DNA of 64,000 nucleotides from Kiritimatiellia bacterium (GTDB lineage: Bacteria > Verrucomicrobiota > Kiritimatiellia > RFP12 > UBA3636). This document shows, piece after piece, positions 4,517 through 63,318 of the stretch (its first letter is position 1; each line of letters begins with the position of its first letter). Where the stretch lies: assembly GCA_017481725.1 (NCBI GenBank), contig JAFUOX010000061.1:19467-83466 (forward strand), given 5' to 3'. The notes below the pieces were generated by a model, which was not told the origin of the DNA, did no database searches, and worked only from the letters and a program-made list of their open reading frames with translations. Position numbers and translations under genes: made by a program.

Positions 4517-6517
4517 TTATTGATTGCTATCTTGGTCAATAAATATTATTTCAGGATTGTTATTAAAGAAAAATTTTTTAATATTACCTTCAAACCTTCT
4601 GGGGATTGATATTTTCTTTAAATTATTGCAGTTTAAAAAAGCCCAATCAGCAATTTCTGTTACACTGTTTGGAATTTCGATTTCCGTTAAATTATTACAG
4701 TAATCAAATGTGCAATATTCAATTTTAGTTACACTATCAGGAATCTTGATGCTTTTTAGGCTTTTGCAGCAATAAAAAGCGCTACTACCAATAGAAGTTA
4801 CGCTATTAGGAATTTCAATGGCAGTTAAATTATCACAGCCAGCAAATGCGCTACTACCAATAGAAATTACGCTATTAGGAATTTTAATGGCAGTTAAATT
4901 ATCACAGCCAGCAAATGCACTATACCCAATAGAAGTTATACTATTAGGAATTTCAATGCTTTTCAGGTTGGTACAATTTTCAAAAGTACTTTTATCGATA
5001 GAAGTTAATCCATTAGGAAGCTTAATGCTTTCTAGGCTTGTGCAGTACGAAAATGCACTATCTTTTATATTTTTTACCTCACCTGTAAATTCAATAAATT
5101 TAAGATTTTCACAATTGCTGAATGCATAGCGATCAATGTATGTTATGTTTTCAGGAATTTTTATACTAGTTAAGCCATTACATCCAGAAAAAACAGAATT
5201 TCGAATAAGGCTTAGTTTATTAGAAAATTTTATGTCTTTTAAACTTTCGCAATGGAAAAATGCATATTGTCCTATGCTTATTATACTATCTGGCATCCCG
5301 ATGCTAATAATGCTCTTGCATCCAGAAAAAGCATAATCCTCTATGTCGGTAACACTGTTCGGTATTGCAATATTGGTTAGGTTGGTACAACAACTAAAGG
5401 CGGCTTCACCTATAATTTTTACTTTGTCGGGAATAGTAAATGTTTTTTTATCTGGAGCACACCAAAATATTTTTGTTTGATCTTTATTATACAAGGCTCC
5501 GTCACTAATAAGGTACTCCGTGTTGCCATCCTGAAGATTTATTTCCGTTAGTTTGTGGCAATTTTTAAAAGCGCCAAGACCAATATATGTTATGCTATTA
5601 GGAATATTGATATATGTTAAATTAGAACAACTCTCAAATGCTCTAGGTCCAATATGTATGAGACTGTTAGGAATATCTATTTTAGTTAAACTGCTACAGT
5701 TGTTAAATGCTTTTATACCAATATGTGTTAAGCTGTCAGGAAGCTTAATATCTATTAGGTTTCTACAAAATGAGAATGTGCTAGTGTTAATATGTGTGAT
5801 ACTATTGGGAAGAGTTATGCTGGTCAGATTGTCGCAACTTGCAAATGCACGTTTTTCTATATTAGTTACGCCATTAGGTATTTCAAGCTTCATTATGCTA
5901 TAACATTGAAAAAATGCAGCTTCTCCAATGTTTGCTAGTGTTTTAGGAAGAAGTATTTTTGATACATTATTGCATCCCCAAAATGTTTCCTTCCCTATAT
6001 GGGTTATTCCCTCGGGGATAGTGACTCTTTTTAATTCATGGCAATTATAAAATGTTTTATCTCCAATACGAGTGATTCCATTAGGTAAGTCAACTCTGAT
6101 TAAAATTCTGCAGTCATAAAATACACTTTCCCCCATATAAGTTACGCTGTCAGGTATTTCGATTGTTCTCAAGAGATGGCAGTATGAAAAAGCTTCATCC
6201 CCAATGTGAATTACGCCCTCAGGAATTTGGATGTGTGTTAGTTCTTTTTGCCAAGAGAAAGCTCTATCTTGTATTTTTACAACTTGTTTTCCTCCCAAAG
6301 TATTTGGGATAACAACTTTTCCAGCAAATTGTTCACCTCTAACAATTACGGCATTGTTATTAGAGTCAACTATGTAACTCCAAATATTACCATCTACCTC
6401 CTCCTTGCAAATGATTTTTGATGCATCTGTCTGCTCATTATTTTCTATAGAAGTTTCAATATTGCCGTATACATTAAAAATACAGCTAAAAATAAAAATA
6501 GATAGGATTTTTTTCAT
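4517..6517 (-). CDS. BspA-type leucine-rich-repeat surface protein (signal peptide MKKILSIFIFSCIFNVYG)
   Basis: about 22-aa repeats of the form IxIPxSVTxIGxxAFxxCxxL throughout. The ORF track starts at 6541, but MKKIL at 6517 is the more likely start (signal peptide). Confidence 0.8.
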   Translation of the reverse strand: MKKILSIFIFSCIFNVYGNIETSIENNEQTDASKIICKEEVDGNIWSYIVDSNNNAVIVRGEQFAGKVVIPNTLGGKQVVKIQDRAFSWQKELTHIQIPEGVIHIGDEAFSYCHLLRTIEIPDSVTYMGESVFYDCRILIRVDLPNGITRIGDKTFYNCHELKRVTIPEGITHIGKETFWGCNNVSKILLPKTLANIGEAAFFQCYSIMKLEIPNGVTNIEKRAFASCDNLTSITLPNSITHINTSTFSFCRNLIDIKLPDSLTHIGIKAFNNCSSLTKIDIPNSLIHIGPRAFESCSNLTYINIPNSITYIGLGAFKNCHKLTEINLQDGNTEYLISDGALYNKDQTKIFWCAPDKKTFTIPDKVKIIGEAAFSCCTNLTNIAIPNSVTDIEDYAFSGCKSIISIGMPDSIISIGQYAFFHCESLKDIKFSNKLSLIRNSVFSGCNGLTSIKIPENITYIDRYAFSNCENLKFIEFTGEVKNIKDSAFSYCTSLESIKLPNGLTSIDKSTFENCTNLKSIEIPNSITSIGYSAFAGCDNLTAIKIPNSVISIGSSAFAGCDNLTAIEIPNSVTSIGSSAFYCCKSLKSIKIPDSVTKIEYCTFDYCNNLTEIEIPNSVTEIADWAFLNCNNLKKISIPRRFEGNIKKFFFNNNPEIIFIDQDSNQ

Positions 6518-11966: not shown

Positions 11967-12700
11967 AACCCGCAGTAAGCAGCGCGAGCGTGATGGCTTG
12001 CGTGGTGGCTAAAAGTGCGAAGGGTAGGGACGCAGAGAGCGCAGAGGATGCTGGGGTGCGCTGAGCTCGTGTGGTGGCTTGTGTGGTGGTTCTGGGAGAT
12101 ACGCCAGCGCTTGTTGTTGGCTGTTGTTGCTCTCGTTGGAGCAGCACCAACTGCCAATCGCTGGTGTGTACGGCCCACAAGATCATTGAGTATGGGAGCG
12201 TACGTAAGCGTGATGCCTAAACGTCTAACGTCTCTCGTCATACGGGTCTCGTCTCTCGTCTCACGTCTCATGTCCCAGAGCGCGTGTCAACGCGTGGAGG
12301 GAGTTTAATGTCTATCTGTCTAATCGTCTGGCGGTGATTGTCTAAACGTCTTATCGTCTTTGGGTCGTACAACCGTCTAATTGTCTAATCGTCCCGGACG
12401 GAAGCGAAAGTGCGAAAATAAAATGTTTTAGCGCTTAGGGGACCTTGGGGACATAGGAGACCTTGGGGACAAATTTATTAAAGCGCTAGAAAATCTTGCT
12501 CTCTTGTCGCCAATGTTACCTATGTCCCCATTGTCTCCACCTAAAATAGAGAGCAAAGATGAAATTGTGCTACACATATTTCACATAAGTGTGATGCCTA
12601 AACGTGCGAAGGGAAGGGACGCACTTTTAGCCACAACGCAAGCCATCACGCTTGCCCCATTTGCCGTCAAAATGGGGCGCATTTGCTTTGCCTAATCACC
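11967..12700. repeat. GC-rich non-coding island carrying inverted and direct repeats (MITE-like element, copy 1)
   Basis: GC content far above flanks. 32-bp inverted repeat gcgtgatggcttgcgtKgtggctaaaagtgcg at ~11985 and ~12623. Core motif gtgcgaaggg(t/a)agggacgc at 12015 and 12604. CGTCT/TGTCTAA short-repeat clusters 12215-12395. gaccttggggaca x2 at 12441-12476. Confidence 0.55.
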
Positions 12701-13121: not shown

Positions 13122-14138
13122 ATGAAGCTAAGATATATTTTGCCAATATTTTTTATAACAATCGTGTGCTCAGCAGCATATGTTGAGGTCACAGGAGATA
13201 AGGTTAATTTGCGTTCTGCAGCAGGTATGCCTAGCGATGTTGTGGGGCAAGTTAATAAAGGTGATTTGTTGGAGCTTCAGGGCAGTGTGGCAGATCCATG
13301 GGTTAAGGTAACACCTCCTAAGAGTGTGGATTTGTGGGTTTCTAGCCAATATGTGGAAAATGGTGTAGTTGTTGGGAATCGTGTTCGCGTGCGGGCTGGT
13401 GCTAGCGTCAATTATAAGGATGTAGGGATAATTGAAAAGGGCACAAAGGTTGAGGTTAGAGGCAAGGTTGGAGATTGGACTAAAATTGCACCCCCTAGTA
13501 CAACTAGTGTTTGGATAACCAATGCCTATGTTAAAGCCGCTAGACAAGCAGAGGAGCCAGTTAAGTCTCAACCAGCTGTTAAGAGTCAGCAACCTATAGA
13601 AAAGAAGCAACCTCAAGTAGAGACAAAGCCAGAGCCAGCTTCTAAATTGCAGCCAGTGGTGCAGGCTCCGGTTGTTGCTAAGCAACCACCTGCTGTTGCC
13701 AAGCAACCACCAGTTGCTAAACAACCATCTGCTGTTGCAAAACAACCACCAGTCGCTAAAAATAAGCCTTCCTCTAATGTAGATGAATCAAAGAAGGTGC
13801 GTAGAACATTTTTTGATACAAAAAAGGAGAAAAATGACTCTCTAATAGGTCCAGCAAAGGTGCCTCAGTCAAAGCTTAGAGATGATTGCAATCAAGCAGT
13901 GACAGCTTCTTATACTGGTCGCCTAGAAGTCGCTCCAAAAAATGCACCAGCTCGCTTTCGTCTAGTTCGTGATGTTCCTGGCTCTCGTTTGACAGAAACA
14001 GAGTGCTATATTATTGGTAACGCAACACAATTAAATTCAATAAAAGGACAAAGCTTTACCTTTGAGGGTCCTGTCTATTGGTTTAAAGGAACAAGTGTTC
14101 CTACAATATACACGCAAGCAATTATTAAGGTGCGCTAA
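13122..14138 (+). CDS. secreted protein with two bacterial SH3 (SH3b) domains and a KQPP-rich linker
   Basis: signal peptide MKLRYILPIFFITIVCSAAYV; VNLRSAAG...GDLLEL and VRVRAGAS...GTKVEV SH3b-like segments; likely start at 13122 rather than 13062. Confidence 0.6.
   Translation: MKLRYILPIFFITIVCSAAYVEVTGDKVNLRSAAGMPSDVVGQVNKGDLLELQGSVADPWVKVTPPKSVDLWVSSQYVENGVVVGNRVRVRAGASVNYKDVGIIEKGTKVEVRGKVGDWTKIAPPSTTSVWITNAYVKAARQAEEPVKSQPAVKSQQPIEKKQPQVETKPEPASKLQPVVQAPVVAKQPPAVAKQPPVAKQPSAVAKQPPVAKNKPSSNVDESKKVRRTFFDTKKEKNDSLIGPAKVPQSKLRDDCNQAVTASYTGRLEVAPKNAPARFRLVRDVPGSRLTETECYIIGNATQLNSIKGQSFTFEGPVYWFKGTSVPTIYTQAIIKVR
13678..13760 (+). repeat. in-frame tandem repeat encoding AKQPP(A/V)VAKQPP units
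   Basis: gctaagcaaccacc / gccaagcaaccacc / gctaaacaaccatc / gcaaaacaaccacc direct repeats. Confidence 0.6.
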
Positions 14139-22880: not shown

Positions 22881-23099
22881 TCCTTATAATATATATGGTT
22901 ATGGTATCATAAAAAATAAAACTGGGCAAACAAAAATTCGTTTAGTATAAAGCCAAATTTGGGATGTTAGTTTGTAGAAAAGAAATTCAAAAAAACGCAA
23001 TTTTTTTTTGAATTTGTGCTTTAATTTGGTTTAAAAATATAGTATTATTAATGGATAATTTTTTAGCGATTTTAGCGTTTATCGAAAGAGTAAATAAAA

Positions 23100-24020
23100 A
23101 TGGATAAGAAAATAGCAGTATTTGCAGGTCAGGGTGCACAGGCACCTGGTATGGGTAAGGATTTAGCAGCAGAGCATCCAGAGTGTGCAGCATTGTTTGC
23201 TGAGGCAGATGATATTCTAGGCTTTAAGCTATCAGACATTTGCTTTGAAGGTCCTGCTGAGGAGCTAACAAAGACAAATATTTGTCAACCAGCAATTTTT
23301 GTTATGAGTGCTGCATGCTACACAGCATTGAAGAAAATCAAGCCAGAGGTTAGCTTTGATGCAATGGCTGGCTTGAGCCTTGGTGAGTGGACAGCTCTTT
23401 GGGCTGCAGGTGCAGTATCCTTTGCTGACACAGTAAAGCTTCTTGAGGCACGTGGTCGTTTTATGCAAGAGGCATGTGAAATGCAGCCATCTGGTATGGT
23501 TTCAATCCTACGCGTTCCTGCAGCAGTTGCAGAGGAGATTGCTGCAGAGACAGGTTGCCATGTTTCAAACTATAATACAGCAGAGCAGACTGTTATTTCT
23601 GGAACCAAGGAGCAGGTTGCTGCAGCTGAGGCATTAGCTGCAACAAAGGGTGCTCGTGCAATGGTTCTTCAGGTAGCAGGTGCTTATCACTCACAATTTA
23701 TGGCTCCAGCTGCAGAAAAGCTAGCAGAGGTGCTAGCAGCAGCAAATATTAATGCTCCAGCAGTGCCAGTTATGTCAAACTTCACAGGTAAGTATCATGG
23801 CACAACTGAAGAAATCAAGCAGGCAATGCTACAACAGATTTGTGGCAGTGTCCGTTGGCAGCAAAATGTTGAAGCATTGGCAGCTGATGGTGCAACAAAG
23901 TTTGTTGAGTTTGGCCCAGGCCGTGTTCTAACAGGCATGATTAAGCGCATTGCTCCAACAGCAGCTCTATACAATGTTGGTAATGTTGCTCAAGCAGCTG
24001 CAACAGCTGAAGCACTATAA
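23100..24020 (+). CDS. fabD: malonyl CoA-ACP transacylase
   Basis: 306 aa; GLSLGEW active-site motif. Confidence 0.9.
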   Translation: MDKKIAVFAGQGAQAPGMGKDLAAEHPECAALFAEADDILGFKLSDICFEGPAEELTKTNICQPAIFVMSAACYTALKKIKPEVSFDAMAGLSLGEWTALWAAGAVSFADTVKLLEARGRFMQEACEMQPSGMVSILRVPAAVAEEIAAETGCHVSNYNTAEQTVISGTKEQVAAAEALAATKGARAMVLQVAGAYHSQFMAPAAEKLAEVLAAANINAPAVPVMSNFTGKYHGTTEEIKQAMLQQICGSVRWQQNVEALAADGATKFVEFGPGRVLTGMIKRIAPTAALYNVGNVAQAAATAEAL

Positions 24021-24073
24021 TCAAAATGATAATTTAAATACATTATATTCACAATTCGAAAGGTAATTACACA

Positions 24074-24808
24074 ATGAGTACAGCAATTGTAACAGGCTCT
24101 GCACGTGGTATTGGTAGAGCAATTTGCGAAAAGCTAGCAAAGGATGGCGTTGAGAATATCGTTGTTTGCGATGTTAAGGCAGAGTGGTGCGAGGAAACTG
24201 TAGAAGCTGTTAAGGCTCTAGGTGCAAATGCAATCGCAATGGAAATCAATGTAGCTGATGGTGCAAGCATTGAGGCTGGCGTTGATGCTATCATTAAGCA
24301 ATTTGGTGCTATCGATATTTGCGTAAATAATGCAGGTATCACACGCGATGGTCTTCTAATGCGTATGACAGAAGAGGATTGGGATTCTGTGCTAGATATC
24401 AATCTAAAGGGTGCATTTCTAATGACAAAGGCTGTTTCTCGCAATATGCTTCGTGCACGCAAGGGTTCAATTATCAATATTGCATCTGTAGTTGGCCTAA
24501 TGGGTAATGCAGGTCAGTGCAACTACTCAGCATCTAAGGGTGGTCTTGTTGCTTTAACAAAGTCAGCTGCTCGTGAACTAGGTGCTCGCGGTGTTCGCGT
24601 AAATGCTGTTGCTCCTGGCTTTATTAAGTCCAAGATGACAGATGTTCTAACAGATGATGTAAAGAACCGTATGCTTTCTGTAATCCCTATGGGCAAATTT
24701 GGTGAGGTTGAGGATGTTGCTAATGCTGTAGCATTCCTAGCTAGCGATGCTGCTGCCTATATCACTGGTCAGGTAATCAGTGTAAATGGCGGTATGCTAA
24801 TGCCATAA
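24074..24808 (+). CDS. fabG: 3-oxoacyl-ACP reductase
   Basis: 244 aa; TGSARGIG Rossmann and YSASK catalytic motif. Confidence 0.9.
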   Translation: MSTAIVTGSARGIGRAICEKLAKDGVENIVVCDVKAEWCEETVEAVKALGANAIAMEINVADGASIEAGVDAIIKQFGAIDICVNNAGITRDGLLMRMTEEDWDSVLDINLKGAFLMTKAVSRNMLRARKGSIINIASVVGLMGNAGQCNYSASKGGLVALTKSAARELGARGVRVNAVAPGFIKSKMTDVLTDDVKNRMLSVIPMGKFGEVEDVANAVAFLASDAAAYITGQVISVNGGMLMP

Positions 24809-24901
24809 CCAAAATATTTAATCTTTTTTACGCTGAATTTGTGCGCTTATGCGTAAATTCGCAATTAAACAATAACAACTAACAAGTCAAGGACAAATAC
24901 C

Positions 24902-25162
24902 ATGACACTAGAAGAAAAAGTAAAGACAATCATCTGCGAAACTCTATCTCGTGGCGCAGAGGAAGTAACTCCAGCAGCAGACTTCATCAATGACCTAGGT
25001 GCAGACTCTCTAGACCTAGCTGAGCTAGTTATGAAGATTGAGGACGAGTTCAAAGATAATATGGCTGGCGAATCTATCCCAGAGGAAGATGTTGCAAGCC
25101 TAAAGAGCCTCGGTGCAATCGTTGAGTACCTAAAGTCAAAGGGCGTTCCAGCTGAGCTATAA
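24902..25162 (+). CDS. acpP: acyl carrier protein
   Basis: 86 aa; LGADSLDLAELVM phosphopantetheine site. Confidence 0.9.
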   Translation: MTLEEKVKTIICETLSRGAEEVTPAADFINDLGADSLDLAELVMKIEDEFKDNMAGESIPEEDVASLKSLGAIVEYLKSKGVPAEL

Positions 25163-25332
25163 TTTAGCTTTTAAGCTATCACCTTTTGTATAATGAGGTA
25201 ATACTTATTTGGAGCAGAGTGTTCTTACACTCTGCCTCCATTCGGATTTCCCGGTAAGACAGTGATGCTGGGCAAAAAAAGATCACTGAAAACAATAACA
25301 AAAATTAACTTAAAAGATTTAAGGAAAAAAAT

Positions 25333-26568
25333 ATGAAGCGTGTAGTAATCACCGGTATGGGCGTAGTTTCTCCTCTTGGCTGTGAGCTAAATACATTTTG
25401 GAATCGTCTTGTAGAGGGTACAAATGGAATTGGCACAATCACAAAGTTTGATGCAACAGAATTCCCAGTAAAGATTGCAGCTGAGGTTAAGGATTTTGAT
25501 GCTAATGCATTTATTGATCCAAAGCAGCAGCGTCGTATGGATCCTTATACTCACTACGCAATTGCTGCTTCTCGTATGGCTGTACAGGATAGCGGAATCA
25601 ATTTCTCAGAAGAGAATCCATGGCGTTGTGGTTGCATTGTTTCTTCTGGTGTTGGTGGTATTTCAACAACAGAAAAGGAAGTGCGAACCCTTTTAGAGCG
25701 TGGTCCTCGCCGTGTTTCTCCTTTCTGCATCCCTCAGATCATCGTTAATATCGCTTCTGGTATGGTTGCTATTGAGCATGGGCTAAAGGGCCCTAACTAT
25801 GCAGTTGTTTCTGCTTGTGCTACTGGCCTACATAGCATTGGTGATGCAATGAAGGCTATTAAGTATGGTGAGGCAGATGTAATGCTAGCTGGTGGTGCTG
25901 AGGCTGCTGTTTGCCCAATTTCTATTGCTGGATTTGCTGCAATGCATGCTCTTTCAACAACAAATGATGACCCAACACACGCTTGCCGCCCATTTGATAA
26001 GGAGCGTAACGGCTTTATTATGGGTGAGGGTGCTGCTGTGCTTGTTCTTGAGGAGTATGAGCATGCAGTTAAGCGTGGTGCAAAGATTTATGCAGAGGTT
26101 GGTGGCTTTGGTGCTACTTGCGATGCTTACCATATGACTGCTCCAGCTGAGGGAGGCGAAGGTGGCGCTCAGGCAATGATTATCTCTATGGAGTCTGCAG
26201 GAGTAAATCCTGACCAGATTGGCTATATAAATGCACATGGTACTTCTACTCCAATGAATGATCGCATTGAAACAGCTGCTATTAAGAAGGCTCTAGGTGA
26301 GGATAATGCTCGCAAGGTTTCTATTTCTTCTTCTAAGTCTATGACAGGTCATATGCTTGGTGCTGCTGGTGCTCTTGAGTCTGTAGTTTGTGCTCTTGCA
26401 TTGAAGAATGGTGTTATCCCTCCAACAATTAACTACCAGAATCCAGACCCAGATTGCGATTTGGATTATACTCCAAATGCAGCTCGCGAGAGAAAGATTG
26501 ATTTCTGCTTGAACAACTCTCTTGGCTTTGGTGGTCATAACGCTTGTGCTCTATTCAAGCGCGTATAA
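25333..26568 (+). CDS. fabF: 3-oxoacyl-ACP synthase II
   Basis: 411 aa; ACATG active-site Cys region, HGTSTP, NSLGFGGHN. Confidence 0.9.
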   Translation: MKRVVITGMGVVSPLGCELNTFWNRLVEGTNGIGTITKFDATEFPVKIAAEVKDFDANAFIDPKQQRRMDPYTHYAIAASRMAVQDSGINFSEENPWRCGCIVSSGVGGISTTEKEVRTLLERGPRRVSPFCIPQIIVNIASGMVAIEHGLKGPNYAVVSACATGLHSIGDAMKAIKYGEADVMLAGGAEAAVCPISIAGFAAMHALSTTNDDPTHACRPFDKERNGFIMGEGAAVLVLEEYEHAVKRGAKIYAEVGGFGATCDAYHMTAPAEGGEGGAQAMIISMESAGVNPDQIGYINAHGTSTPMNDRIETAAIKKALGEDNARKVSISSSKSMTGHMLGAAGALESVVCALALKNGVIPPTINYQNPDPDCDLDYTPNAARERKIDFCLNNSLGFGGHNACALFKRV

Positions 26569-26606
26569 TTAAGTTAATTCTTAATCAAAACCTAGGTCTT
26601 CCTACA

Positions 26607-27290
26607 ATGGGTAGAAAATCAAAACGCACCAAGTCCCAGGTAATTGGGAATGGAGCAACACAGCAAACGCCAGATTTTAGCAATCGCACAATTAAGCGAT
26701 TGCCTCAGTATCTGCGTTTATTGCGTCAGATGCAGGACAAAGGTGAGTCCTTTGCATCTGCCGCAGTAATAGCTCATGAGCTAATGATTGACCCTATTGT
26801 TGTCCGTAAGGATTTGGCAGGCACAGGTGTAAGTGGTAAGCCACGTATAGGCTTTCCTGTAAATGCATTAATTCTTGCTATTCAGCGTTTATTAGGCTGG
26901 AATCTTGAGATGAATGCAATTCTAGTTGGTGCAGGCCGTCTAGGTTCTGCACTACTAGGTTATCCTGGTTTTTTGAAGCATGGCTTCAAGATTGTTGCTG
27001 CTTTTGATAATCGCGAAGATTTACCAGAAAGCATTTCTGGTGTGCCAATTTATCCATTGGAACAAATGTCAGAGGTAGTAACCAAATTAAATGTAAGCAT
27101 TGGTATTATTACTGTGCCAGCTGGTGCCGCTCAAAGTGCAGCAGATGGTTTAATAGCTGCTGGTGTGAAGGGTATTTGGAATTTTACCCCTATTTGCTTA
27201 CACACACCTGAAAGAGTTAAGGTTCGTCATGAGGATTTGGCATCCTCTTTAGCTGTGCTTTCGCATAGCATTGTTACTGGAAACCTATAA
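26607..27290 (+). CDS. rex: redox-sensing transcriptional repressor Rex
   Basis: RLPQYLRLL winged-helix, Rossmann GAGRLG; start moved to MGRKSKR (26607), downstream of the ORF-track start. Confidence 0.8.
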   Translation: MGRKSKRTKSQVIGNGATQQTPDFSNRTIKRLPQYLRLLRQMQDKGESFASAAVIAHELMIDPIVVRKDLAGTGVSGKPRIGFPVNALILAIQRLLGWNLEMNAILVGAGRLGSALLGYPGFLKHGFKIVAAFDNREDLPESISGVPIYPLEQMSEVVTKLNVSIGIITVPAGAAQSAADGLIAAGVKGIWNFTPICLHTPERVKVRHEDLASSLAVLSHSIVTGNL

Positions 27291-27861
27291 CTAAAATCGG
27301 CTTTCTCTTTGCATTCCACTGGCGTCTCGTGTTTCGCGTGCAGGAAGGGTATGGAGAAGCGACTTCCAGTCGCTTTGCGTGCGGTAGCACGCTTCAAAAG
27401 TGCGAAAAAGGGACGCTGCGACGCGGAGGACGCAGCGTACGAGATTAGACGCGAGAATGTAGAAAAACCACTCAACTCTACCTAAATTCTTCATTCTTCA
27501 TTCTTCATTTATTATAATGGTGATGAAAAGCGAGAGGAAGCAAAGGGTTATCACCTTGCCACCTCTCGCCCCAGCAACACCGGGCGGCAGAGCCACCCTC
27601 TTCCCCACTGTCAAACTGTCAAACTCGCCCACTGTCAAACTGTCAAACTTTTCAATCCTTTTTTTAAAAATTCCTTGTGCATCACGCTCCGTATCTTAAT
27701 AAACTTCTGTGCGAGCACACTAGTGGATGAGTTTTGCCAAATTGCTTCGAAAGAATAGCAATAGCCAAGGCAAAGCTCATTCCGCTAGTGTTTTTTTTCT
27801 GCGTCCCTTCTTCGCACTTTTAGGCACCACGTGCACCACGCAGGCAGGAGCGCTAGCTTGA
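27291..27861. repeat. GC-rich non-coding island (MITE-like element, copy 2) with inverted core motifs and tandem heptamer/octamer repeats
   Basis: core gtgcgaaaaagggacgc at 27390-27406 and its inverse gcgtcccttcttcgcac at 27801-27817; ATTCTTC x3 at 27486-27508; CTGTCAAA x4 in two blocks at 27607-27648; palindrome gctgcgacgcggaggacgcagc at ~27404. Confidence 0.55.
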
Positions 27862-29916
27862 TTATGTGTTGGTGTTGCTGCCGCTCATTTGGGTGGCGTA
27901 TAGCTCTGCGTAGAATTTGCTTCTGTGGAGCAGCTGTTGGTGCGTGCCCTGTGCTGTTATAAAGCCGTCCTCTAGCACAATAATCTTGTGGCAACGCATA
28001 GCCATTGAGATGCGCTGTGAAACAATGACGGCAGTTTTGTTTTCCATCACGCGAGTGAGTGTTTCTTGAAGCTTGCGCTCTGTTTTTGCATCAAGAGCAG
28101 ATGTGCAATCGTCCAAAAGCAGGATGTCTGGGTTTGTAATGATTGCTCGTGCAATAGAGATGCGCTGGCGCTGTCCACCCGAAAGGGTTTGACCCTTCTC
28201 TCCAATAATTGTCTCATACTTTACTGGTAGGTTCATAATAAAGTCGTGGCAGTCTGCTGCCTTTGCTGCATCCATTATTTTTGATGGAAGTGAGTCTTGT
28301 GTGCCATAGATAATGTTGCTACGTACTGTGCCACTGATGATTTGAGCCTCCTGTGGTACGAGTGATATGTGTTTATGGAGGTCTTGCTGAGCAAATTCTG
28401 TTAGTGGTGTAGAATCAATTGTAATTGTTCCACTAGTTGGATCATATAAGCGGGCAAGAAGGTTGATTAGGGTGGATTTCCCCGAACCACTTGGGCCTAT
28501 GATACATACCCACTGTCCCATTGGGATACTTAGATTGATGTTGGAAAGAACCTGCTTTGAGCTTGAATCATAGCTGAAGGAAAGATTGTTTGCGTAAATG
28601 CCTGAATTTATCTTTTCTGGGAATGGCTTTGCATCCTCTGCCTCTGTTAGGTAATTAGGATTTTCAAGTGTTGCAGAAATACGCTGAATTAGCACAAAAG
28701 TGCTGGCTATGTTACCGGCTGTAATGGCAAGTGTATATAATGGTGGGAAAAGGTTATTGCAAGCATCGCAAATAAACATCATGTCTCCGAGAGATATTTC
28801 GCTATTTAATACACGGATTGTTGCAAAAATAAATATTGCCTGCTGTGTAATCTGAGAGATTAGTAGTGCACTTCTATTGATGCTTGAATTTAGGCGGACA
28901 TTTTGAATGCTATCGCGTGTGAGAATGGAGGAGAGCCTGAACATATTTATCATTTCAAGCTTTTCGCAGCCATAGGCGAAAATAGCCTTAATTGCATCTA
29001 GCTTTTGTGAAACAAGTCCCCATAAGCAAGCATTTGTGTGGCGAAGCTCACGGCTGATTTTTCTTAGGTATTTTCGTGATTTACTTCTTAATAGGAAGTA
29101 CGGAACTGAAACAGCAAGAACAATCAAAGCACAGCGCCAATCAAGTACAAGCACAATTACAAAGCCAACAATTATCATTATTACTTGGCTAAATACAATG
29201 TTGATAATGTTGAGTAGGTCGGCTTGGATATTGTCAACATCTGAAATAATTCTTGCAAGCAATCTTCCTGGTGTAGTTGATTGATGATATTGGCTAGAAA
29301 GAGAAAGTATTCTTTCATGCAGGTCTTTGCGAATGTCAACAGTCATTTTTCTAGCAATGCCGTGTCGGACATTTGTTGCCACGCGCGATATTTCATTAAG
29401 AGCAACGAAGGTTGCAACATATACAATAAAGATAATAAATAGCTTTGTCCCTGCGTTTGGTGGGCGGCGTGAGGCCTTGTCCGCACGGAATTTTTCTGCC
29501 TGCTTTGCTTCTGTATGACGAGCTCGCTCCGTCATTGATGGTGAATCAGCACGAGAAATGGTTGTGTCGGTCCTGCGTTCCTGTGGGATAGGCTCAGTCT
29601 CTATGCGAAATTCCTCGTAATGTCTTTCCTGAACAACTGTTGGCTCTGGAACATTGATTACAAGTATGTCATCAATCACGAGCTTTGTGAAAAAGCCCAT
29701 TATAAATACAGAGCATGAGGCTAGTGTGGAGAAAATCAGATAAAATGCTAGAGGTTTTTTGTAGGGATGAAGATACCGCATGTAGAATTTAAACATTAGC
29801 CGAAGAGGATTACTGTAGGAAAAATCCTCGCGTGCGGGACGGAATGGGGATATGCGAGACTCATAGCGTGGAGGACGCTTTTTTCTGCTGATTGCGGAGG
29901 TGTTTTCTTTTTTCAT
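27862..29916 (-). CDS. ABC transporter permease/ATP-binding protein (exporter half-transporter) with N-terminal extension and charged insertion
   Basis: 684 aa; Walker A GPSGSGKST, signature LSGGQRQR; about 70-aa basic/acidic insertion between the first TM helices. Confidence 0.8.
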   Translation of the reverse strand: MKKENTSAISRKKRPPRYESRISPFRPAREDFSYSNPLRLMFKFYMRYLHPYKKPLAFYLIFSTLASCSVFIMGFFTKLVIDDILVINVPEPTVVQERHYEEFRIETEPIPQERRTDTTISRADSPSMTERARHTEAKQAEKFRADKASRRPPNAGTKLFIIFIVYVATFVALNEISRVATNVRHGIARKMTVDIRKDLHERILSLSSQYHQSTTPGRLLARIISDVDNIQADLLNIINIVFSQVIMIIVGFVIVLVLDWRCALIVLAVSVPYFLLRSKSRKYLRKISRELRHTNACLWGLVSQKLDAIKAIFAYGCEKLEMINMFRLSSILTRDSIQNVRLNSSINRSALLISQITQQAIFIFATIRVLNSEISLGDMMFICDACNNLFPPLYTLAITAGNIASTFVLIQRISATLENPNYLTEAEDAKPFPEKINSGIYANNLSFSYDSSSKQVLSNINLSIPMGQWVCIIGPSGSGKSTLINLLARLYDPTSGTITIDSTPLTEFAQQDLHKHISLVPQEAQIISGTVRSNIIYGTQDSLPSKIMDAAKAADCHDFIMNLPVKYETIIGEKGQTLSGGQRQRISIARAIITNPDILLLDDCTSALDAKTERKLQETLTRVMENKTAVIVSQRISMAMRCHKIIVLEDGFITAQGTHQQLLHRSKFYAELYATQMSGSNTNT

Positions 29917-29917
29917 T

Positions 29918-31696
29918 TTATTCCTCCGCCTCTGAGTCGTCGAGTATTATACCTGCTCCAGAGTGCTTCTCGTAAAGCTCTCTATAGCGCCCGTTTTCTA
30001 TCTGCATTAGCTCTTCGTGACTGCCTTGCTCAATAATGGTGCCTTTGTCAAGAAGTATAATTTTATCGGCATTTTTAATTGTGCTTAGGCGGTGTGCCAC
30101 GATAAATGATGTCTTATTGGAAAGAAAGCGATCGAGAGCCTGTTTAATAGCTGATTCGGAGCGACTATCGAGAGAGCTTGTTGCCTCATCCATAATAAGG
30201 ATTGTTGGATTTGCTAGAACTGCGCGTGCGATAGAAATTCGCTGCTTTTGTCCAACGGAAAGCTGCACATCTTTGTCACCAATGACAGACTCATAGCCGC
30301 GAGGGAGTGTCATAATTTCATTATGAATTTCTGCAATCTTTGCTGCGTTAATTACCTCATCCATAGTCGCTGATGGGCGAGCATAGCGGATGTTGTCTGC
30401 TATTGAGGTTGTGAAGAGGAGTGACTCCTGAAGCACAATGCCGAAAAGTGATTTCAGTGAATATTTGCTAATTTCGCGAATATCAACTCCGTCTATTGTG
30501 ATGCTTCCTTCCTTTACGTCCCAAAAACGCATTAGAAGCGAAAGGATAGTGGTTTTTCCGCAGCCTGTTGGACCAACAAGGGCGATTGTTTCTCCTGGTT
30601 TAACGTGAAGATCAAAGCCACAGATGATTGGATGGCCTTCCTCGTATTCAAAATGGATATTATTGAAATCAACCTTACCAGAAACATTTTTGAGGGTAAT
30701 TGGGTTTTCGGCTTCCTTTACCTGTGGCTCTTCCTCGAGAATTTCAAAGAGGCGGTCTGCTGCGATTCGAACATTTTGTAGGCGTTCTGCGAACATGGTG
30801 AAGCGGATAATTGGCCAAAAGAGCATATTTGCATATGCCACGAATGCGGTTACATCACCATAGGTGGTTGAGTTATTAAGAATCATCCCGCATCCAATAA
30901 AAAAGATTGCTGCATGGCCAAATTTTTGGAGTAGCTGTGCATTGAAGCTATTGTCTGAGGAGGCTTTCCAACCGTTATGTGCATAAATGGAAGCCGTATT
31001 TGTTTCTTCAGAGAAAACAATGTTCTCGCGTTCTTCTGCGCTATAGGTTTTGACGGTTAGGTTCGCTGAAAGGCGGTTTTGTACTCCAGAGGCAAGCCTA
31101 TCTCCGGCTGTGCGGAAATTTTTCCAAGCCATGCGAATACGCTTCCTTAGGATGATAAAGTTTAGATAAAATAGCGATAAAACAATTATCAGTATTATGG
31201 AAAGGCGCCAGTTGATATAAAATGCTGCTGTGATTGCAAAGGTAGAGCAGAACAAATCTGCAATAATTTGAATTGAACCAGCATCAAGGATGAATAGCAG
31301 GGCAGTGGAGTCACCCATGATTCTATTGATAAGCTTACCGGTGCTATTTTTGCTGAAATAGCCCATGTGGAGATTGAGAAGATGCTTATATATGTCCATC
31401 TTTAGCTTCAAAATGAAGCGCTGACCAACAATGGAAACCCCCATCGACTGGATAAAACCGAGTAAAGCATTACATGTTGGTATTGCAATTGCAACGCAGG
31501 CAATGCCGAAAAGCTGCTCGCGTTTGTTTGCTCCAATAATATCGTTAATGATATATCGAGAAATAAGAGGAGGCAATGCTTGTATGATGGAAATTACTAG
31601 CATCAAAAGAATAAGCAAAAAGAGCTGCTTCTTAAATGGAAGCAGTAGCTTAAAGATTTTTGACATTGTGCCTTTTTTTGGGGCATTAGTGTCCAT
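29918..31696 (-). CDS. ABC transporter permease/ATP-binding protein (exporter half-transporter)
   Basis: 592 aa; GPTGCGKTT, LSVGQKQR; 1-bp gap to the downstream ABC gene (likely heterodimer). Confidence 0.85.
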   Translation of the reverse strand: MDTNAPKKGTMSKIFKLLLPFKKQLFLLILLMLVISIIQALPPLISRYIINDIIGANKREQLFGIACVAIAIPTCNALLGFIQSMGVSIVGQRFILKLKMDIYKHLLNLHMGYFSKNSTGKLINRIMGDSTALLFILDAGSIQIIADLFCSTFAITAAFYINWRLSIILIIVLSLFYLNFIILRKRIRMAWKNFRTAGDRLASGVQNRLSANLTVKTYSAEERENIVFSEETNTASIYAHNGWKASSDNSFNAQLLQKFGHAAIFFIGCGMILNNSTTYGDVTAFVAYANMLFWPIIRFTMFAERLQNVRIAADRLFEILEEEPQVKEAENPITLKNVSGKVDFNNIHFEYEEGHPIICGFDLHVKPGETIALVGPTGCGKTTILSLLMRFWDVKEGSITIDGVDIREISKYSLKSLFGIVLQESLLFTTSIADNIRYARPSATMDEVINAAKIAEIHNEIMTLPRGYESVIGDKDVQLSVGQKQRISIARAVLANPTILIMDEATSSLDSRSESAIKQALDRFLSNKTSFIVAHRLSTIKNADKIILLDKGTIIEQGSHEELMQIENGRYRELYEKHSGAGIILDDSEAEE

Positions 31697-31755
31697 AGCT
31701 TATTCTAAATCCGTTTGGTTGCTAAAATAGTTTATGTGTGGCCCAGCAAAAAAAA

Positions 31756-35546: not shown

Positions 35547-35574
35547 TTGCATATTTTTTAATATATTGTATAAT
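35547..35574 (+). promoter_or_regulatory. sigma70-like promoter (TTGCAT-16-TGnTATAAT) for the RhuM-like array
   Basis: TTGCAT at 35547, extended -10 tgTATAAT at 35567-35574; about 30 bp upstream of the AAGGAG RBS. Confidence 0.4.
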
Positions 35575-35606
35575 TATGGTGCTTTTATAAATCACAAGGA
35601 GTTGCT

Positions 35607-36476
35607 ATGGAACATAAAGAGAAGAAAAACGAAATTGTAATATATCAGCCCAATGAAACTATCCGCTTGGAGGTATGCTTAGAGAATGACACCGTGTGGC
35701 TGACGCAAACACAACTATGTAACTTGTTTGGTGTTGTTAAGTCAAATATTTCATCTATTCTTAAGAATATATTTGAAACTAATGAGTTGGATTCTTCGGC
35801 AATTGTTCAAAAAAATCGAACAGTTCAACAAGAGTCTGGACGTTTTGTCTCTCGCAATATTGAACGTTTTTCATGTGGATTTATGTTTGTCCTGTCAAAA
35901 GAAGAGTTGTGTGAACTGGTCACAAATTGTGACCGGTTTAAAAATTTAAAGCATTCCACGGTCTATCCAAAAGCATTCACAGAGCAAGGAGTTGCTATTA
36001 ATCATGAAGAGAAGAAAAACAAAATTGTAATATACCAGCCAGATGAAACTATACGGATAGAGGTTGTTCTTCAAAATGAAATAGTGTGGCTAAATCAGAT
36101 AAAGTTGTCTGCCTTATTTGATGTAGATAGAAGTGTTATAAATAGGCATATACGTAATATTTACAATAGTGGTGAACTGCATGAATCAGCAACTTGTGTA
36201 AAAATTGCACAAGTTCAAAATGAGGGAGCAAGAATAGTTTCCCGTGTAATTCCATTTTTTAATCTTGATGTTATAATAGCGGTTGGATATAGGGTAAATT
36301 CTGCAAGGGCAACACAATTTCGTATTTGGGCAACATCAGTTTTGAGAGAGCATTTGTTATGTGGTTACTCTTATAATATTCATCTAAAACATTTGGAAAA
36401 TAAAATGGATGAGAAATTTGCGGCTCACGATAAGGATATATCTTATCTCAAAGAAAAAGTAGATTTCTTTATATAA
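35607..36476 (+). CDS. RhuM-family (virulence protein RhuM N-terminal region) paralog 1 with a tandemly duplicated N-domain
   Basis: 289 aa; EIVIYQPNETIRLEV...TVWLTQ motif occurs twice (residues 1-60 and ~133-190); YNLD..(A/I)VGYRVNS..FR(I/R)WAT core; ends KEKVDFFI. Confidence 0.7.
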   Translation: MEHKEKKNEIVIYQPNETIRLEVCLENDTVWLTQTQLCNLFGVVKSNISSILKNIFETNELDSSAIVQKNRTVQQESGRFVSRNIERFSCGFMFVLSKEELCELVTNCDRFKNLKHSTVYPKAFTEQGVAINHEEKKNKIVIYQPDETIRIEVVLQNEIVWLNQIKLSALFDVDRSVINRHIRNIYNSGELHESATCVKIAQVQNEGARIVSRVIPFFNLDVIIAVGYRVNSARATQFRIWATSVLREHLLCGYSYNIHLKHLENKMDEKFAAHDKDISYLKEKVDFFI

Positions 36477-36558
36477 ACACAAACTGCACATATAGATGAA
36501 TTATTCACAAGGAGTTGCTATGAATCACGAAGAGAAGAAAAACGAAATTGTAATATAT
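36455..36558 (+). repeat. conserved cassette junction (3' KEKVDFF codons + taaacacaaactgcacatatagatgaattattcacaAGGAGttgctATGaatca + first ~12 codons), copy 1
   Basis: recurs at 37385-37465 and 37893-37998; partial copies at 35585-35650, 35985-36050 (in-frame, ATG to ATT) and 37795-37830. Confidence 0.8.
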
Positions 36559-37401
36559 CAGCCCAATGAAACTATCCGCTTGGAGGTTTGTCTTCGAGAT
36601 GAAACTGTATGGTTGAATCAAGAGCAAATAGCATCTTTGTTTGGAACTAAAAGACCAGCAATAACCAAACATCTAAAAAATATATACGAAAGCAGGGAAA
36701 TAGATAAGGATAGCACATGTTCCATTTTGGAACACATGGGAAATGCTGGAAAACAAACCTATCGTACATTATATTATAATTTGGATGCTATTCTTTCTGT
36801 TGGCTATAGAGTTAATAGTACAAATGCTACTAAATTTAGAAGATGGGCAACAGAGACATTAAAGGCATATCTACTAAAGGGTTATGTGATTAATACTCAT
36901 CTAAGTCATTTGGAAAATAAAATGGATGAGAAATTTGCGGCTCACGATAAGGATATATCCTATCTCAAAGAAAAAGTAGATTTCTTTGTGCAAACGCAGA
37001 CACCGCCACTCCAGGGCGTATTCTTTGAGGGACAGCTATGGGATGCGTGCTCGTTAGTGGAAAAGCTTATTGCACGAGCAAAAAGCTCAATTTTATTGAT
37101 TGATAATTGGGTTAGCGTAGAAACGCTTGATATGCTCGCAAAAAAGAATAGCGGGGTAGCAGTATCCATAGTTACCTCAAAAAGAGGAAACAAGCTTGCT
37201 CCCTCTGATATTGCTAAATTTAACGCCCAATATCCAATCTTAACGATTAAGGAGAGTGACGCTTTTCATGACCGCTTTCTAATTCTTGATGACAAAGAAA
37301 TATATCTTATCGGAGCATCGCTAAAGGATTTAGGAAAGAAATGCTTTGCCTTTACCAAAATGGATGTCAGTACAATATCTGACATAAAACTGCACATATA
37401 G
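36520..37401 (+). CDS. RhuM-family N-domain fused to a ~150-aa C-terminal domain (paralog 2)
   Basis: ITKHLKNIY, YYNLDAILSVGYRVNSTNATKFRRWAT. The start is moved to the ATG following the AAGGAG RBS; the ORF-track start at 36496 is an upstream in-frame ATG inside the conserved junction. Confidence 0.7.
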   Translation: MNHEEKKNEIVIYQPNETIRLEVCLRDETVWLNQEQIASLFGTKRPAITKHLKNIYESREIDKDSTCSILEHMGNAGKQTYRTLYYNLDAILSVGYRVNSTNATKFRRWATETLKAYLLKGYVINTHLSHLENKMDEKFAAHDKDISYLKEKVDFFVQTQTPPLQGVFFEGQLWDACSLVEKLIARAKSSILLIDNWVSVETLDMLAKKNSGVAVSIVTSKRGNKLAPSDIAKFNAQYPILTIKESDAFHDRFLILDDKEIYLIGASLKDLGKKCFAFTKMDVSTISDIKLHI

Positions 37402-37465
37402 ATGAATTATTCACAAGGAGTTGCTATGAATCATGAAGAGAAGAAAAACGAAATTGTAATATATC
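37385..37465 (+). repeat. conserved cassette junction, copy 2
   Basis: aaactgcacatatagatgaattattcacaaggagttgctatgaatcatgaagagaagaaaaacgaaattgtaatatatcagcc. Confidence 0.8.
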
Positions 37466-37809
37466 AGCCAGATGAAACTATACGAATAGAGGTTAGAGTA
37501 GCTAATGATACGGTTTGGCTTACGCAAAGCCAAATGAGTCTTTTATTTGGTTGCACTGTAAGAAATATTAGATTGCATTTAGAAAAGATATATTCGTGTG
37601 GGGCGTTGGAAACAGATTCAACTAAGAAGGATTTCTTCCTAGTTCGGTTTGAAGGAATAAGGGCAGTTAAAAGAAATATTACTTGTTATAACTTAGATGC
37701 TATTATTTCTGTTGGTTATCGTGTTAATTCTATTTTGGGTGTAAAATTCAGACGCTGGGCTACAGAGGTGTTGCGTAATTATCTTTTAATGAGTTGCTAT
37801 GAAACATAA
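37426..37809 (+). CDS. truncated RhuM-family N-domain paralog 3 (likely recombination remnant)
   Basis: 127 aa from the RBS-proximal ATG; the frame terminates inside a degenerate copy of the junction sequence (gagttgctatgaaacataa). Confidence 0.55.
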   Translation: MNHEEKKNEIVIYQPDETIRIEVRVANDTVWLTQSQMSLLFGCTVRNIRLHLEKIYSCGALETDSTKKDFFLVRFEGIRAVKRNITCYNLDAIISVGYRVNSILGVKFRRWATEVLRNYLLMSCYET

Positions 37810-37892
37810 AGAGAAGAAAAAAGCAATGTGCATTTTTTACACATTCCTTCTTCTGACAAACCTATGATAATCGTATAGAAACCCTTGAGGGG

Positions 37893-37998
37893 AAAGTAGA
37901 TTTCTTTATATAAACACAAACTGCACATATAGATGAATTATTCACAAGGAGAGTTGCTATGAATCATGAAGAGAAGAAAAACGAAATTGTAATATATC
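37893..37998 (+). repeat. conserved cassette junction, copy 3 (with AG insertion in the RBS region)
   Basis: gaaagtagatttctttatataaacacaaactgcacatatagatgaattattcacaaggagagttgctatgaatcatgaagag... Confidence 0.8.
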
Positions 37999-38867
37999 AG
38001 CCCAATGAAACGATACGAATAGAGGTTGTGCTTCAAAATGAAACAGTATGGCTAAATCGGAAACAGATGGCTGAGCTTTTTGGACGTAATGTTAAAACTA
38101 TAGGAAAACATATAAAAAATGCACTGTCTGAAGAGTTGTCTGAGTCATACAATATAGGGGATAGTACAAGCAACAGAAATCCAGTTGTCGCAAATTTTGC
38201 GACAACTGCCACTGACGGTAAAGTTTATAGTGTTGAGTATTATTCTCTTGATGTTGTTTTGTCTGTCGGGTATAGAGTTAAATCAACACAAGGGATTGCC
38301 TTTCGTAGATGGTCAAATGAGGTTTTGAAGTCTTTTTTGATTAATGGGTATATTTATGATTATAAATTTAGCCACTTAGAAGAGCGGATCGATAAACATT
38401 TAGCGGCTCACGATAAGGATATATCCTATCTCAAAGAAAAAGTAGATTTCTTTGTGCAAACTCAGACGCCACCACTCCAGGGCGTATTTTTTGAGGGGCA
38501 GTTATGGGATGCGTGCTCGCTTGTGGAAAAGCTTATTGCACGAGCAAAAAGTTCAATTTTATTGATTGATAGCTGGGTTAGCGTAGAAACACTTGATATG
38601 CTCGCAAAAAAGAATAGCGGGGTAGCAGTATCCATAGTTACCTCAAAGCACGGCAACAAGCTTGCTCCCTCCGATATTGCTAAATTTAATGCTCAATACC
38701 CAACATTAACGATTAAAGAGAGTGCCGCATTTCATGACAGATTCCTAATTCTTGATGACAAAGAAATATACCTTATCGGAGCATCGCTCAAGGATCTCGG
38801 AAAGAAATGCTTTGCCTTTACCAAAATGGATGCCAGTACAATTCCATCCATAAAAGCCCAGATTTAA
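37959..38867 (+). CDS. RhuM-family N-domain fused to a ~150-aa C-terminal domain (paralog 4)
   Basis: 302 aa; C-terminal 150 aa about 93% identical at nucleotide level to paralog 2 (38405-38867 vs 36950-37401). Confidence 0.7.
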   Translation: MNHEEKKNEIVIYQPNETIRIEVVLQNETVWLNRKQMAELFGRNVKTIGKHIKNALSEELSESYNIGDSTSNRNPVVANFATTATDGKVYSVEYYSLDVVLSVGYRVKSTQGIAFRRWSNEVLKSFLINGYIYDYKFSHLEERIDKHLAAHDKDISYLKEKVDFFVQTQTPPLQGVFFEGQLWDACSLVEKLIARAKSSILLIDSWVSVETLDMLAKKNSGVAVSIVTSKHGNKLAPSDIAKFNAQYPTLTIKESAAFHDRFLILDDKEIYLIGASLKDLGKKCFAFTKMDASTIPSIKAQI

Positions 38868-53669: not shown

Positions 53670-53728
53670 TTTAGTCGTTGGAATATAGAACTTATATCAC
53701 AAGCAACCCATAAGTTGGCATTTAAAAT

Positions 53729-53830
53729 AATTTCCCCTAATCGCCAAAATCAAGATTAGGGGAAATTTTTTTAAGCCATAAAAAATTTCCCCTAAATTTA
53801 AAAAACGGCTTTAGGGGAAATTTTATTGTT
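53729..53830. repeat. two tandem hairpins with identical 12-13-bp stems (AATTTCCCCTAA/TTAGGGGAAATT)
   Basis: hairpin 1 at 53729-53767 followed by a T-run; hairpin 2 at 53784-53822; located between the MTase and ATPase genes. Confidence 0.6.
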
Positions 53831-61633: not shown

Positions 61634-61780
61634 ACACTGTTTGTCTTGTGGAGAGATTTGACGCTAGAGCTTGCGTCCATTTGGATTCATGAACACCAAT
61701 GGGCATGCTATTGCACGCATGCCTATGGCGTGAACAAGTATGATGTGTGAGCTATCATGTGCACAACAAATCCATTCTTT

Positions 61781-61821
61781 CTATTTTAGAAAAATGTAAA
61801 AAAGTTAAAAATCTAAAATAG
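61781..61821. repeat. 41-bp palindromic repeat copy 1 (CTATTTTAG-N23-CTAAAATAG)
   Basis: ctattttagaaaaatgtaaaaaagttaaaaatctaaaatag. Confidence 0.75.
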
Positions 61822-61855
61822 GTTGTTGATTTTCTGCTTACAAAATGATACATTT

Positions 61856-61896
61856 CTATTTTAGAAAAACACAAAAAAGTTAAAAATCTAAAATAG
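61856..61896. repeat. 41-bp palindromic repeat copy 2, ending 8 bp before the ATPase start codon
   Basis: ctattttagaaaaacacaaaaaagttaaaaatctaaaatag. Confidence 0.75.
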
Positions 61897-61904
61897 AGAT
61901 ACCT

Positions 61905-63137: not shown

Positions 63138-63140
63138 AAT

Positions 63141-63181
63141 CTATTTTAGAAAAATGTAAAAAAGTTAAAAATCTAAAATAG
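63141..63181. repeat. 41-bp palindromic repeat copy 3, starting 4 bp after the ATPase stop codon
   Basis: ctattttagaaaaatgtaaaaaagttaaaaatctaaaatag, identical to copy 1. Confidence 0.75.
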
Positions 63182-63318
63182 GGAACATTTCTCCCCGTAG
63201 AACTTAGTACCCCACATTCGAGTATCCCTTAGCTTTCCTTTGAATATATATTTTTTGTGAGTCTGCAAAAGAAAAATGCAAATAACACATTTTTTATTGT
63301 AGAAAGAATAGCACTAGT

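Follow-up and report, generated by a model that had tools for sequence, protein, structure and literature searches.

The closest described systems are the BIME/REP repeats of Enterobacteria, the BOX elements of Streptococcus pneumoniae and bacterial MITEs such as Correia/NEMIS of Neisseria. REP sequences of the GTAG/CGTC type are palindromes of 20–40 nt with an unpaired GTAG or CGTC tag, a stem of 5–13 bp and a short loop (PMC3733652). BIMEs and REPs are extragenic, high in copy number and hairpin-forming, occur in mosaics with short motifs, lie mostly after coding regions, and have been proposed to act in termination and mRNA stability; the CGTC-type REPs have no associated transposase. BOX elements are modular, non-coding intergenic repeats of stable secondary structure, in which the number of sub-units varies within a fixed order, A-B(n)-C, and whose mobilising enzyme is not known. 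MITEs are small, non-coding, high-copy intergenic elements that can carry promoters or terminators. Yeast mitochondrial GC clusters, from a different domain of life, are GC-rich, hairpin-prone units of 30–50 bp that are dispersed in AT-richer intergenic DNA and polymorphic between strains, with no modular hub.

To our knowledge, Kiritimatiellia are abundant but almost uncultured in ruminant and human gut, and their non-coding DNA is wholly uncharted. The window, by which we mean the whole stretch of 64,000 nt analysed here, is part of a 99.6-kb ruminant-gut metagenome scaffold (ENA ERZ28653980), and the named homologues of its Rex protein come from Kiritimatiellia. The spacer of ~570 nt at 27291–27861, termed island 2, lies between the convergent genes for rex (26607–27290, + strand; Pfam domains Put_DNA-bind_N and CoA_binding) and an ABC exporter (27862–29916, − strand; ABC_membrane and ABC_tran). 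With a probability of roughly 0.6, we read island 2 as one member of a family of modular interspersed repeats that is non-coding, present in many copies in uncultured gut Kiritimatiellia, and BIME/BOX-like in its organisation. The spacer is assembled from discrete modules, namely hairpins, tandem blocks with units of 7–12 nt, and a long hairpin with exchangeable tips.

With BIMEs and REPs this family shares its extragenic position, high copy number, hairpins, mosaic structure with other short motifs and preference for sites after coding regions. Unlike REPs, it lacks the tagged palindrome of 20–40 nt with a stem of 8–9 bp and a loop of 4–5 nt, and its modules are much longer (60–480 nt) and rich in tandem repeats of 7–12 nt. 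A GTAG/CGTC-tagged REP was rejected on these grounds: the core described below is not palindromic, and the nearby hairpins are untagged and either have loops of 10–13 nt or are 75 nt long. No RAYT/Y1_Tnp family was among the recurrent families of the 128 open reading frames near cores, as covered by loci of 8 kb. BOX elements are likewise modular, intergenic and non-coding, with variable sub-unit number and stable secondary structure, but they are unrelated in sequence and host, and the Kiritimatiellia modules join one hub in both orientations rather than following a fixed order. The resemblance to MITEs extends to the occasional inverted ends; in contrast to MITEs, no target-site duplication, constant terminal inverted repeats or related full-length IS was found, and the interiors are unrelated between copies. 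The family falls outside the REP, MITE, inverton and Rfam-RNA families tested. A literature search on repeats of Kiritimatiellia, Verrucomicrobia or Bacteroidales and on the motif string retrieved no account of it, and a paper on HU of P. gingivalis matched merely through an unrelated oligonucleotide; the family appears to be undescribed so far.

The pattern GTGCGAAN{2,8}GGGACGC (GTGCGAA-N(2-8)-GGGACGC) has four matches in the window (12015+, 12604+, 27400+ and 27801−), all within the two islands, and 0 matches in 100 dinucleotide-preserving shuffles of the window. The first-pass annotation had described a GC-rich island with an inverted pair of cores, and all the features that it listed are present. 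The island is indeed enriched in GC, but only modestly (0.48 against 0.40 for the window). The right core was correctly placed at 27801–27817, whereas the left one, given as 27390–27406, was wrong by 10 nt and lies at 27400–27416. The inverted pair itself is genuine and spans 21 nt on each side (27396–27416 and 27801–27821, 95% complementary, 384 nt between the arms). The palindrome GCTGCGACGCGGAGGACGCAGC is found at 27415–27436, the heptamer array ATTCTTC x3.4 at 27486–27509, and the tandem array ACTGTCAA x5.4 at 27604–27649, which may alternatively be read as a 24-nt unit repeated 1.9 times. The features of the two islands are as follows.

11984–12655, no strand assigned: island 1, between a GH39 gene and an SH3 gene; member of the core repeat family
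27334–27395, + strand: M1, two adjoining hairpins just 3' of rex; common to L060, L056, L073, L049, L010 and L050
27356–27376: first hairpin of M1, arms GAAGCGACT/AGTCGCTTT
27377–27392: second hairpin of M1, GCGTGC-GGTA-GCACGC
27396–27416, + strand: forward core AAAAGTGCGAAAAAGGGACGC, left arm of the inverted pair
27413–27438, − strand: 8-bp GC hairpin ACGCTGCG/CGCAGCGT with a 10-nt loop; fold −18.4 kcal/mol, z = −1.9
27439–27519, + strand: M3, with the TTAGACG motif, AACCACTCAACTCTACC, the heptamer array and a palindromic −10-like box ATTATAAT (27511–27518)
27520–27677, + strand: M4, with a hairpin (27530–27569) and CTGTCAAA x4 (27604–27649); C-rich on the + strand, GC skew about −0.3
27687–27800, + strand: M5, a 75-nt imperfect hairpin (27717–27791) followed by T8 (27791–27798); terminator-like, directed toward the ABC gene
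27798–27848, − strand: right cap, consisting of the reverse core (27801–27821) and its GTGRTGS short-repeat flank; ends 14 nt before the ABC stop

For the family at large, one genome per GTDB species was scanned for AAAAGTGCGAA-N(2-5)-GGGACGC, and at least 74 loci matched. Of the 74 matches listed, contigs from four gut MAGs of Kiritimatiellia or 'Verrucomicrobia' make up 42 (JAFPBK01, sampled from cattle rectum; JAZNPC01; CALDQE01; and, added later, JAZNQC01), 12 belong to a second organism, a member of the Bacteroidales described below, and ~20 are lone hits in unrelated taxa, not far from the ~70 expected by chance for the whole collection. The claim of a repeat family with further copies thus held well beyond the window. 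All comparison sequences are short-read assemblies of MAGs or metagenomes. A metagenome scan retrieved no rex-syntenic loci, a scan of viral sequences gave a single, chance-like hit, and BLAST against plasmids and phages showed no similarity.

When 27200–27950 was compared with the matched loci by BLAST, each base of 27334–27848 was common to 1–45 other loci and no base outside was shared. The repeat therefore leaves 43 nt free after the rex stop and 14 nt ahead of the ABC stop. Within these limits island 2 is a mosaic pieced together from six or more modules, all of which recur in gut Kiritimatiellia MAGs at unrelated intergenic sites, with edges that are sharp both in coverage steps and in alignments. 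Repeat coverage rises from 7 to 20 loci at 27396, where the forward core starts; the right cap is matched by 36–45 other loci, where the match sets in abruptly at the inner edge, 27798, and coverage decays to zero by 27848. In L010 and L085, the first hairpin of M1 is swapped at the equal position for a different sequence, AAGGGGC..GCCCCTT. M3 has 11–12 other copies at 85–95% identity, in which the number of heptamers ranges from 2 to 6. A 'basic unit' of ~290 nt, in which M3 abuts M5 directly and M4 is absent, occurs at L052, L036, L073, L017 and L032, so that M4 is an extra piece in island 2; M4 is found on its own at L066, L062, L004, L032, L003 and L021. Ten copies of M5 are >90% identical, and a T-run follows every one of them.

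Modules of 60–480 nt are thus common to several genomes, and the similarity exceeds the 19-bp core to which it might have been confined. The proposed homology between the two islands stood for the 36–41 nt around each core; in pairwise comparison within the window, the interiors are unrelated. Island 1 is constructed like island 2 from partly different modules. It has inverted arms of 36 nt, its left part (12000–12475) is a type-A unit of ~205–476 nt with at least 16 known copies, and it also holds a CGTCT short-repeat block and a GGGGACC hairpin. Type-A units occur elsewhere in tandem with a period of 191–210 nt, and the long hairpin of these units is homologous to M5. At 12604–12633, a forward core is joined head-to-head to a truncated reverse core. 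Hairpin arms at 12436–12545 of the window, and at 2948–3087 of L009, are made of tandem GGGGACCTT and GGGGACATA units; the L009 arm contains four G4 runs with 5-nt loops, which is a canonical G-quadruplex motif. Downstream of island 1, a gene with an SH3_3 domain carries an in-frame tandem repeat of 21/39 nt, GTTGCTAAACAACCACCTGCT, at 13653–13772.

The modules are joined by the core, a conserved stretch of ~25 nt, YTARAAGTGCGAA-N3-5-GGGACGC. In 55 cores, the left flank is of three kinds and the right flank of five, and these pair in many combinations; the core serves as a hub to which alternative modules attach on either side, and not as the end of an element. Because conservation continues into the flank beyond it, the core is not an element tip. 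Its length is 17, 18 or 19 nt, with an inner spacer of 3, 4 or 5 nt, and across loci cores are single, in direct tandem or inverted. For fifteen cores, a stop codon of the same strand lies ≤100 nt upstream, as opposed to about two in the mirror arrangement. Near a gene, the core caps the island at the 3' end of that gene and points inward. Island 2 lies between convergent genes and is capped at both ends, hence its inverted pair. The four bases ahead of AAGTGCGAA are mostly CTAA, CTAG or TTAA.

Several other identities of the core were considered and rejected. A coding sequence (a possible MAKSAKGRD.. peptide) does not agree with core lengths of 17/18/19 nt and with tandem repeats that vary by non-multiples of 3. 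Uptake sequences were considered because AAGTGCG resembles the Haemophilus USS; the 64 kb of the window hold 6 copies of AAGTGCGAA, of which 4 are in the islands, with no DUS/USS-like enrichment outside. A CRISPR array is incompatible with core spacings of 589 and 401 nt in the window and ~200 nt at other loci, and with 'spacers' that are repeats themselves. In a sigma-54 promoter reading, the GG-to-GC spacing is 2 nt too short as read from the sequence. The resemblances to KOPS (GGGNAGGG) and to the Chi-like GTGGTGG were judged coincidence because they are found in some copies only.

The hairpins are preserved together with compensating changes. The long hairpin is present in 16/16 type-A units, with two compensating versions of the basal stem (ATACGC/GCGTGT and ACACTA/TAGTGT) and three alternative, unrelated versions of the tip. 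The M4 hairpin GCGAGAGG/CCTCTCGC becomes GCTCAAGG/CCTTGAGC in L032, again a compensatory change. Judged by sequence comparison, hairpin structure is under constraint. M5 folds with −40.3 kcal/mol (z = −5.0); folding energies of the M5 copies and type-A units favour neither strand consistently, so that the constraint may act on RNA or on DNA. Many cores have no adjacent hairpin.

Two terminator-like units face outward from island 2: M5 with its T8 on the + strand toward the ABC gene, and on the − strand the hairpin at 27413–27438, followed by CCCUUUUUCGCACUUUU (the core in reverse), toward rex. The latter hairpin is kept in the B-type copies L032, L050, L056 and L060. A consensus scan reported neither terminator nor promoter within island 2; the hairpins exceed its limits for loop and stem, and that at 27413–27438 was missed because its loop exceeds 8 nt. 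In the uninterrupted unit of L036, the same type of scan detected TTAAGA-16-TATAAT (10/12), aimed at the heptamer/core side, with equal spacing in 5/5 uninterrupted units. In the window, M4 sits exactly between the −35 and −10 boxes, which splits the candidate promoter. No conserved small open reading frame lies downstream of it, and a type I toxin-antitoxin locus was rejected. Rfam covariance models gave no match at gathering score in the islands of the window and 30 other loci. From the sequence we infer terminator and promoter roles for the island modules.

Related genomes differ in their islands. In JAZNPC (L077), with a Rex 85% identical and equal gene order, the rex–ABC spacer measures 156 nt and contains an ordinary bidirectional terminator and no core. 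This is the syntenic genome without island that the first-pass annotation had called for. In JAZNQC (L085), which is of the same species (Rex 100% identical), the island has 609 nt. A segment running from the middle of the island across the ABC genes (27443–30252) is 97.1% identical to the window, and both GC-rich ends differ: a TTAGACG array takes the place of the left core, the first hairpin is different and the right cap is rebuilt. L089 (Rex 91% identical) has a core in opposite orientation beside rex, and another lineage has different genes downstream of rex. JAZNPC lacks synteny with the window along the right flank of island 1. Many short-read contigs stop 74–156 nt after rex, and Logan contigs break at the island edges.

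Related genomes gain, lose and remodel their islands, which coincide with breakpoints of synteny and divergence. Going by short-read assemblies, the remodelling, the divergence step and the synteny breaks place the islands at boundaries of recombination or rearrangement. The divergence step was seen in comparison with JAZNPC, where DNA identity is 87.1% on the rex side (22978–27284) and 97.5% on the ABC side (27886–31707). This suggests a tract of recent recombination or transfer that ends in island 2.

The idea of one inserted element bounded by the inverted pair did not survive these comparisons, as cores are also single, in tandem (~200 nt apart) or inverted elsewhere, the same-species strain L085 has no left core, and a target-site duplication is not visible. 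Nor does the repeat extend into the ABC gene: its homology stops at 27848, outside the stop codon at 27862–27864. An altered C-terminus had been suspected, and the last 7 residues do differ (SGSNTNT in the window, DGNEQA in the island-less genome), but the repeat lies outside the reading frame and the protein is within ±1 residue of its island-less relative (684 vs 683 aa, 98% identity overall). A breakpoint of the variable region may conceivably lie in the final ~25 nt of the ABC gene.

A classical MITE that had the inverted cores as its terminal inverted repeats, landed in the rex–ABC spacer and depended on a DDE transposase encoded at another site would account for the inverted pairs of 21 nt (island 2) and 36 nt (island 1), for an element size of 300–670 nt at high copy number, for the orthologous site without island in JAZNPC and for the preferred bases before AAGTGCGAA. 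These bases recall what we take to be the IS5 target YTAR, and the core presumably recalls a GTGCGAA-containing IS5 end, or else an IS256 end. We nevertheless consider a MITE unlikely: no direct repeat was seen at the candidate boundaries in the window, L052 or L074, the frequent solitary or directly repeated cores leave no constant terminal inverted repeats, the two islands of the window have only their ends in common, L085 keeps the interior without the left core, and the flank is conserved beyond the core. No transposase was found between inverted cores, and no recurrent family of transposases, integrases or reverse transcriptases among the 128 open reading frames within 2.5 kb of cores. 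As neither a mobilising enzyme nor a target-site duplication nor an exact empty site was found, we infer mobility only from presence/absence and dispersal. Inversion of the TATAAT-bearing interior by a recombinase acting on the inverted repeats is very improbable. The 384-nt segment with its −10 box is suitably flanked, the right end of island 1 resembles a palindromic site, GCCTAAACGTGCG-N11-CGCACTTTTAGCC, and L089 has its inverted core beside rex; yet island 2 lies between convergent 3' ends and therefore has no gene to switch, the interior has an identical orientation in the window, L085, L009 and L036, most cores are unpaired, and no recombinase gene was found nearby.

Multi-copy genes for small RNAs, each consisting of promoter, structured RNA and terminator, with the repeats being secondary, are another reading, which we regard as rather improbable. 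The GGA/GGAG-rich strand could then serve as a protein sponge (GGA is enriched ~1.5–2-fold by eye). The evenly spaced TTAAGA-16-TATAAT, the terminator-like ends of both strands, the UUCG-type loops and the compensatory stems agree with it; the missing Rfam match, the interruption of the candidate promoter by M4 in the window, copies without terminators (e.g., L017 and L036 variants) and the lack of consistent strand asymmetry in folding do not. Neither a CsrA nor an Hfq gene turned up in the limited portion of each genome covered, which is uninformative. Selfish or structural DNA better fits the variation in repeat number and the likely copies per genome, as extrapolated from two islands per 64 kb. 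All comparators being MAGs and Logan contigs breaking at island edges, the mosaic might also be largely an artefact of short-read assembly at a repeat. This has little to commend it, as the arrangement at 27443–27800 and the position between rex and the ABC gene recur in the independent MAG JAZNQC and module boundaries are consistent across four MAGs from different studies. High-copy repeats are, however, prone to chimeric joins in such assemblies, so that part of the apparent reshuffling of modules from strain to strain could be artefactual.

Under the preferred reading of a modular repeat family, modules would spread and shuffle as the common core and short repeats recombine or undergo gene conversion, or alternatively would be mobilised in trans by an enzyme encoded elsewhere. 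The outward modules of hairpin and U-run may act as terminators or insulators between the convergent rex and ABC genes, or alternatively as 3' stabilisers of mRNA, and the palindromic −10 box may yield short divergent transcripts from some copies. The repeat probably supplies terminators between convergent genes. As a high-copy modular repeat, the family explains why short-read assemblies fragment at gene ends. It offers a strain-typing marker that is ready to use, and its islands mark synteny breaks and the identity step of 87% vs 97.5% across one spacer.

The core also occurs in a second family, at twelve loci whose bins bear the titles Acutalibacteraceae and Segatella copri (L011, L014, L018, L025, L033, L034, L037, L046, L053 and L064 of CAVKTI01; L059 and L071 of CAVBBP01), where TAAAAGTGCGAAAGTAGGGACGCA is followed by a GGACGCAC/GTGCGTCC hairpin. 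Glucose-6-phosphate isomerase from one of these contigs clusters at ≥90% with a Paludibacteraceae protein, which indicates a Bacteroidales host despite the bin titles. The Paludibacteraceae-like intergenic regions consist almost wholly of ordered tandem blocks of 7–8 nt around core and hairpin (units TAGCAAG, CATAGAG, GTGTGAAA, CAATTCAA, ATTTGAA and GAATAAT), and short-repeat arrays number 114 per 100 kb in the Bacteroidales loci vs 24 per 100 kb in control loci.

The Kiritimatiellia and Bacteroidales families have 23–24 of 24–25 nt of the core and a (TGAATAA)n block in common and nothing else, and since the search pattern fixed 18 core bases, independent support for this cross-phylum match is thin. 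That two high-copy families so alike in style should match by chance nevertheless seems improbable. It is a long shot, but conceivable, that the ~24-nt core, TAAAAGTGCGAA-N3-5-GGGACGCA, is the recognition or junction site of a DNA-exchange system that moves non-coding cassettes from one intergenic region to another, possibly across phyla; such a system could be a recombinase or single-strand transposition in trans. If so, the islands would be non-coding counterparts to integron cassettes or pdif modules rather than decayed selfish DNA, and if the cross-phylum core reflects a common mechanism, it would provide a handle on a mobilisation system without known enzyme.

Further elements were observed beside the islands and elsewhere in the window. 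L024 carries at its contig start (59–125) the 3' terminus of a group II intron (Rfam RF00029, 48 bits), which lies ~75 nt upstream of a core and abuts the island. Two tandem TPP riboswitch aptamers in L032 (5273–5379 and 5428–5532) precede one gene and adjoin a repeat island with its core at 5597. The largest direct-repeat families of the window stem from four to five tandem paralogous genes at 35568–38867 (289–302 aa and one fragment of 135 aa), which have near-identical N-termini (MNHEEKKNEIVIYQPNETIR..) and C-terminal halves in common; we take them to resemble RhuM-type proteins. Unrelated to the core family are AT-rich palindromic repeats at 61780–61897, 63140–63182 and 53725–53827, comprising a 43-nt element, TCTATTTTAG..CTAAAATAGG, in 3 copies and paired hairpins, AAATTTCCCCTAA..TTAGGGGAAATTT.
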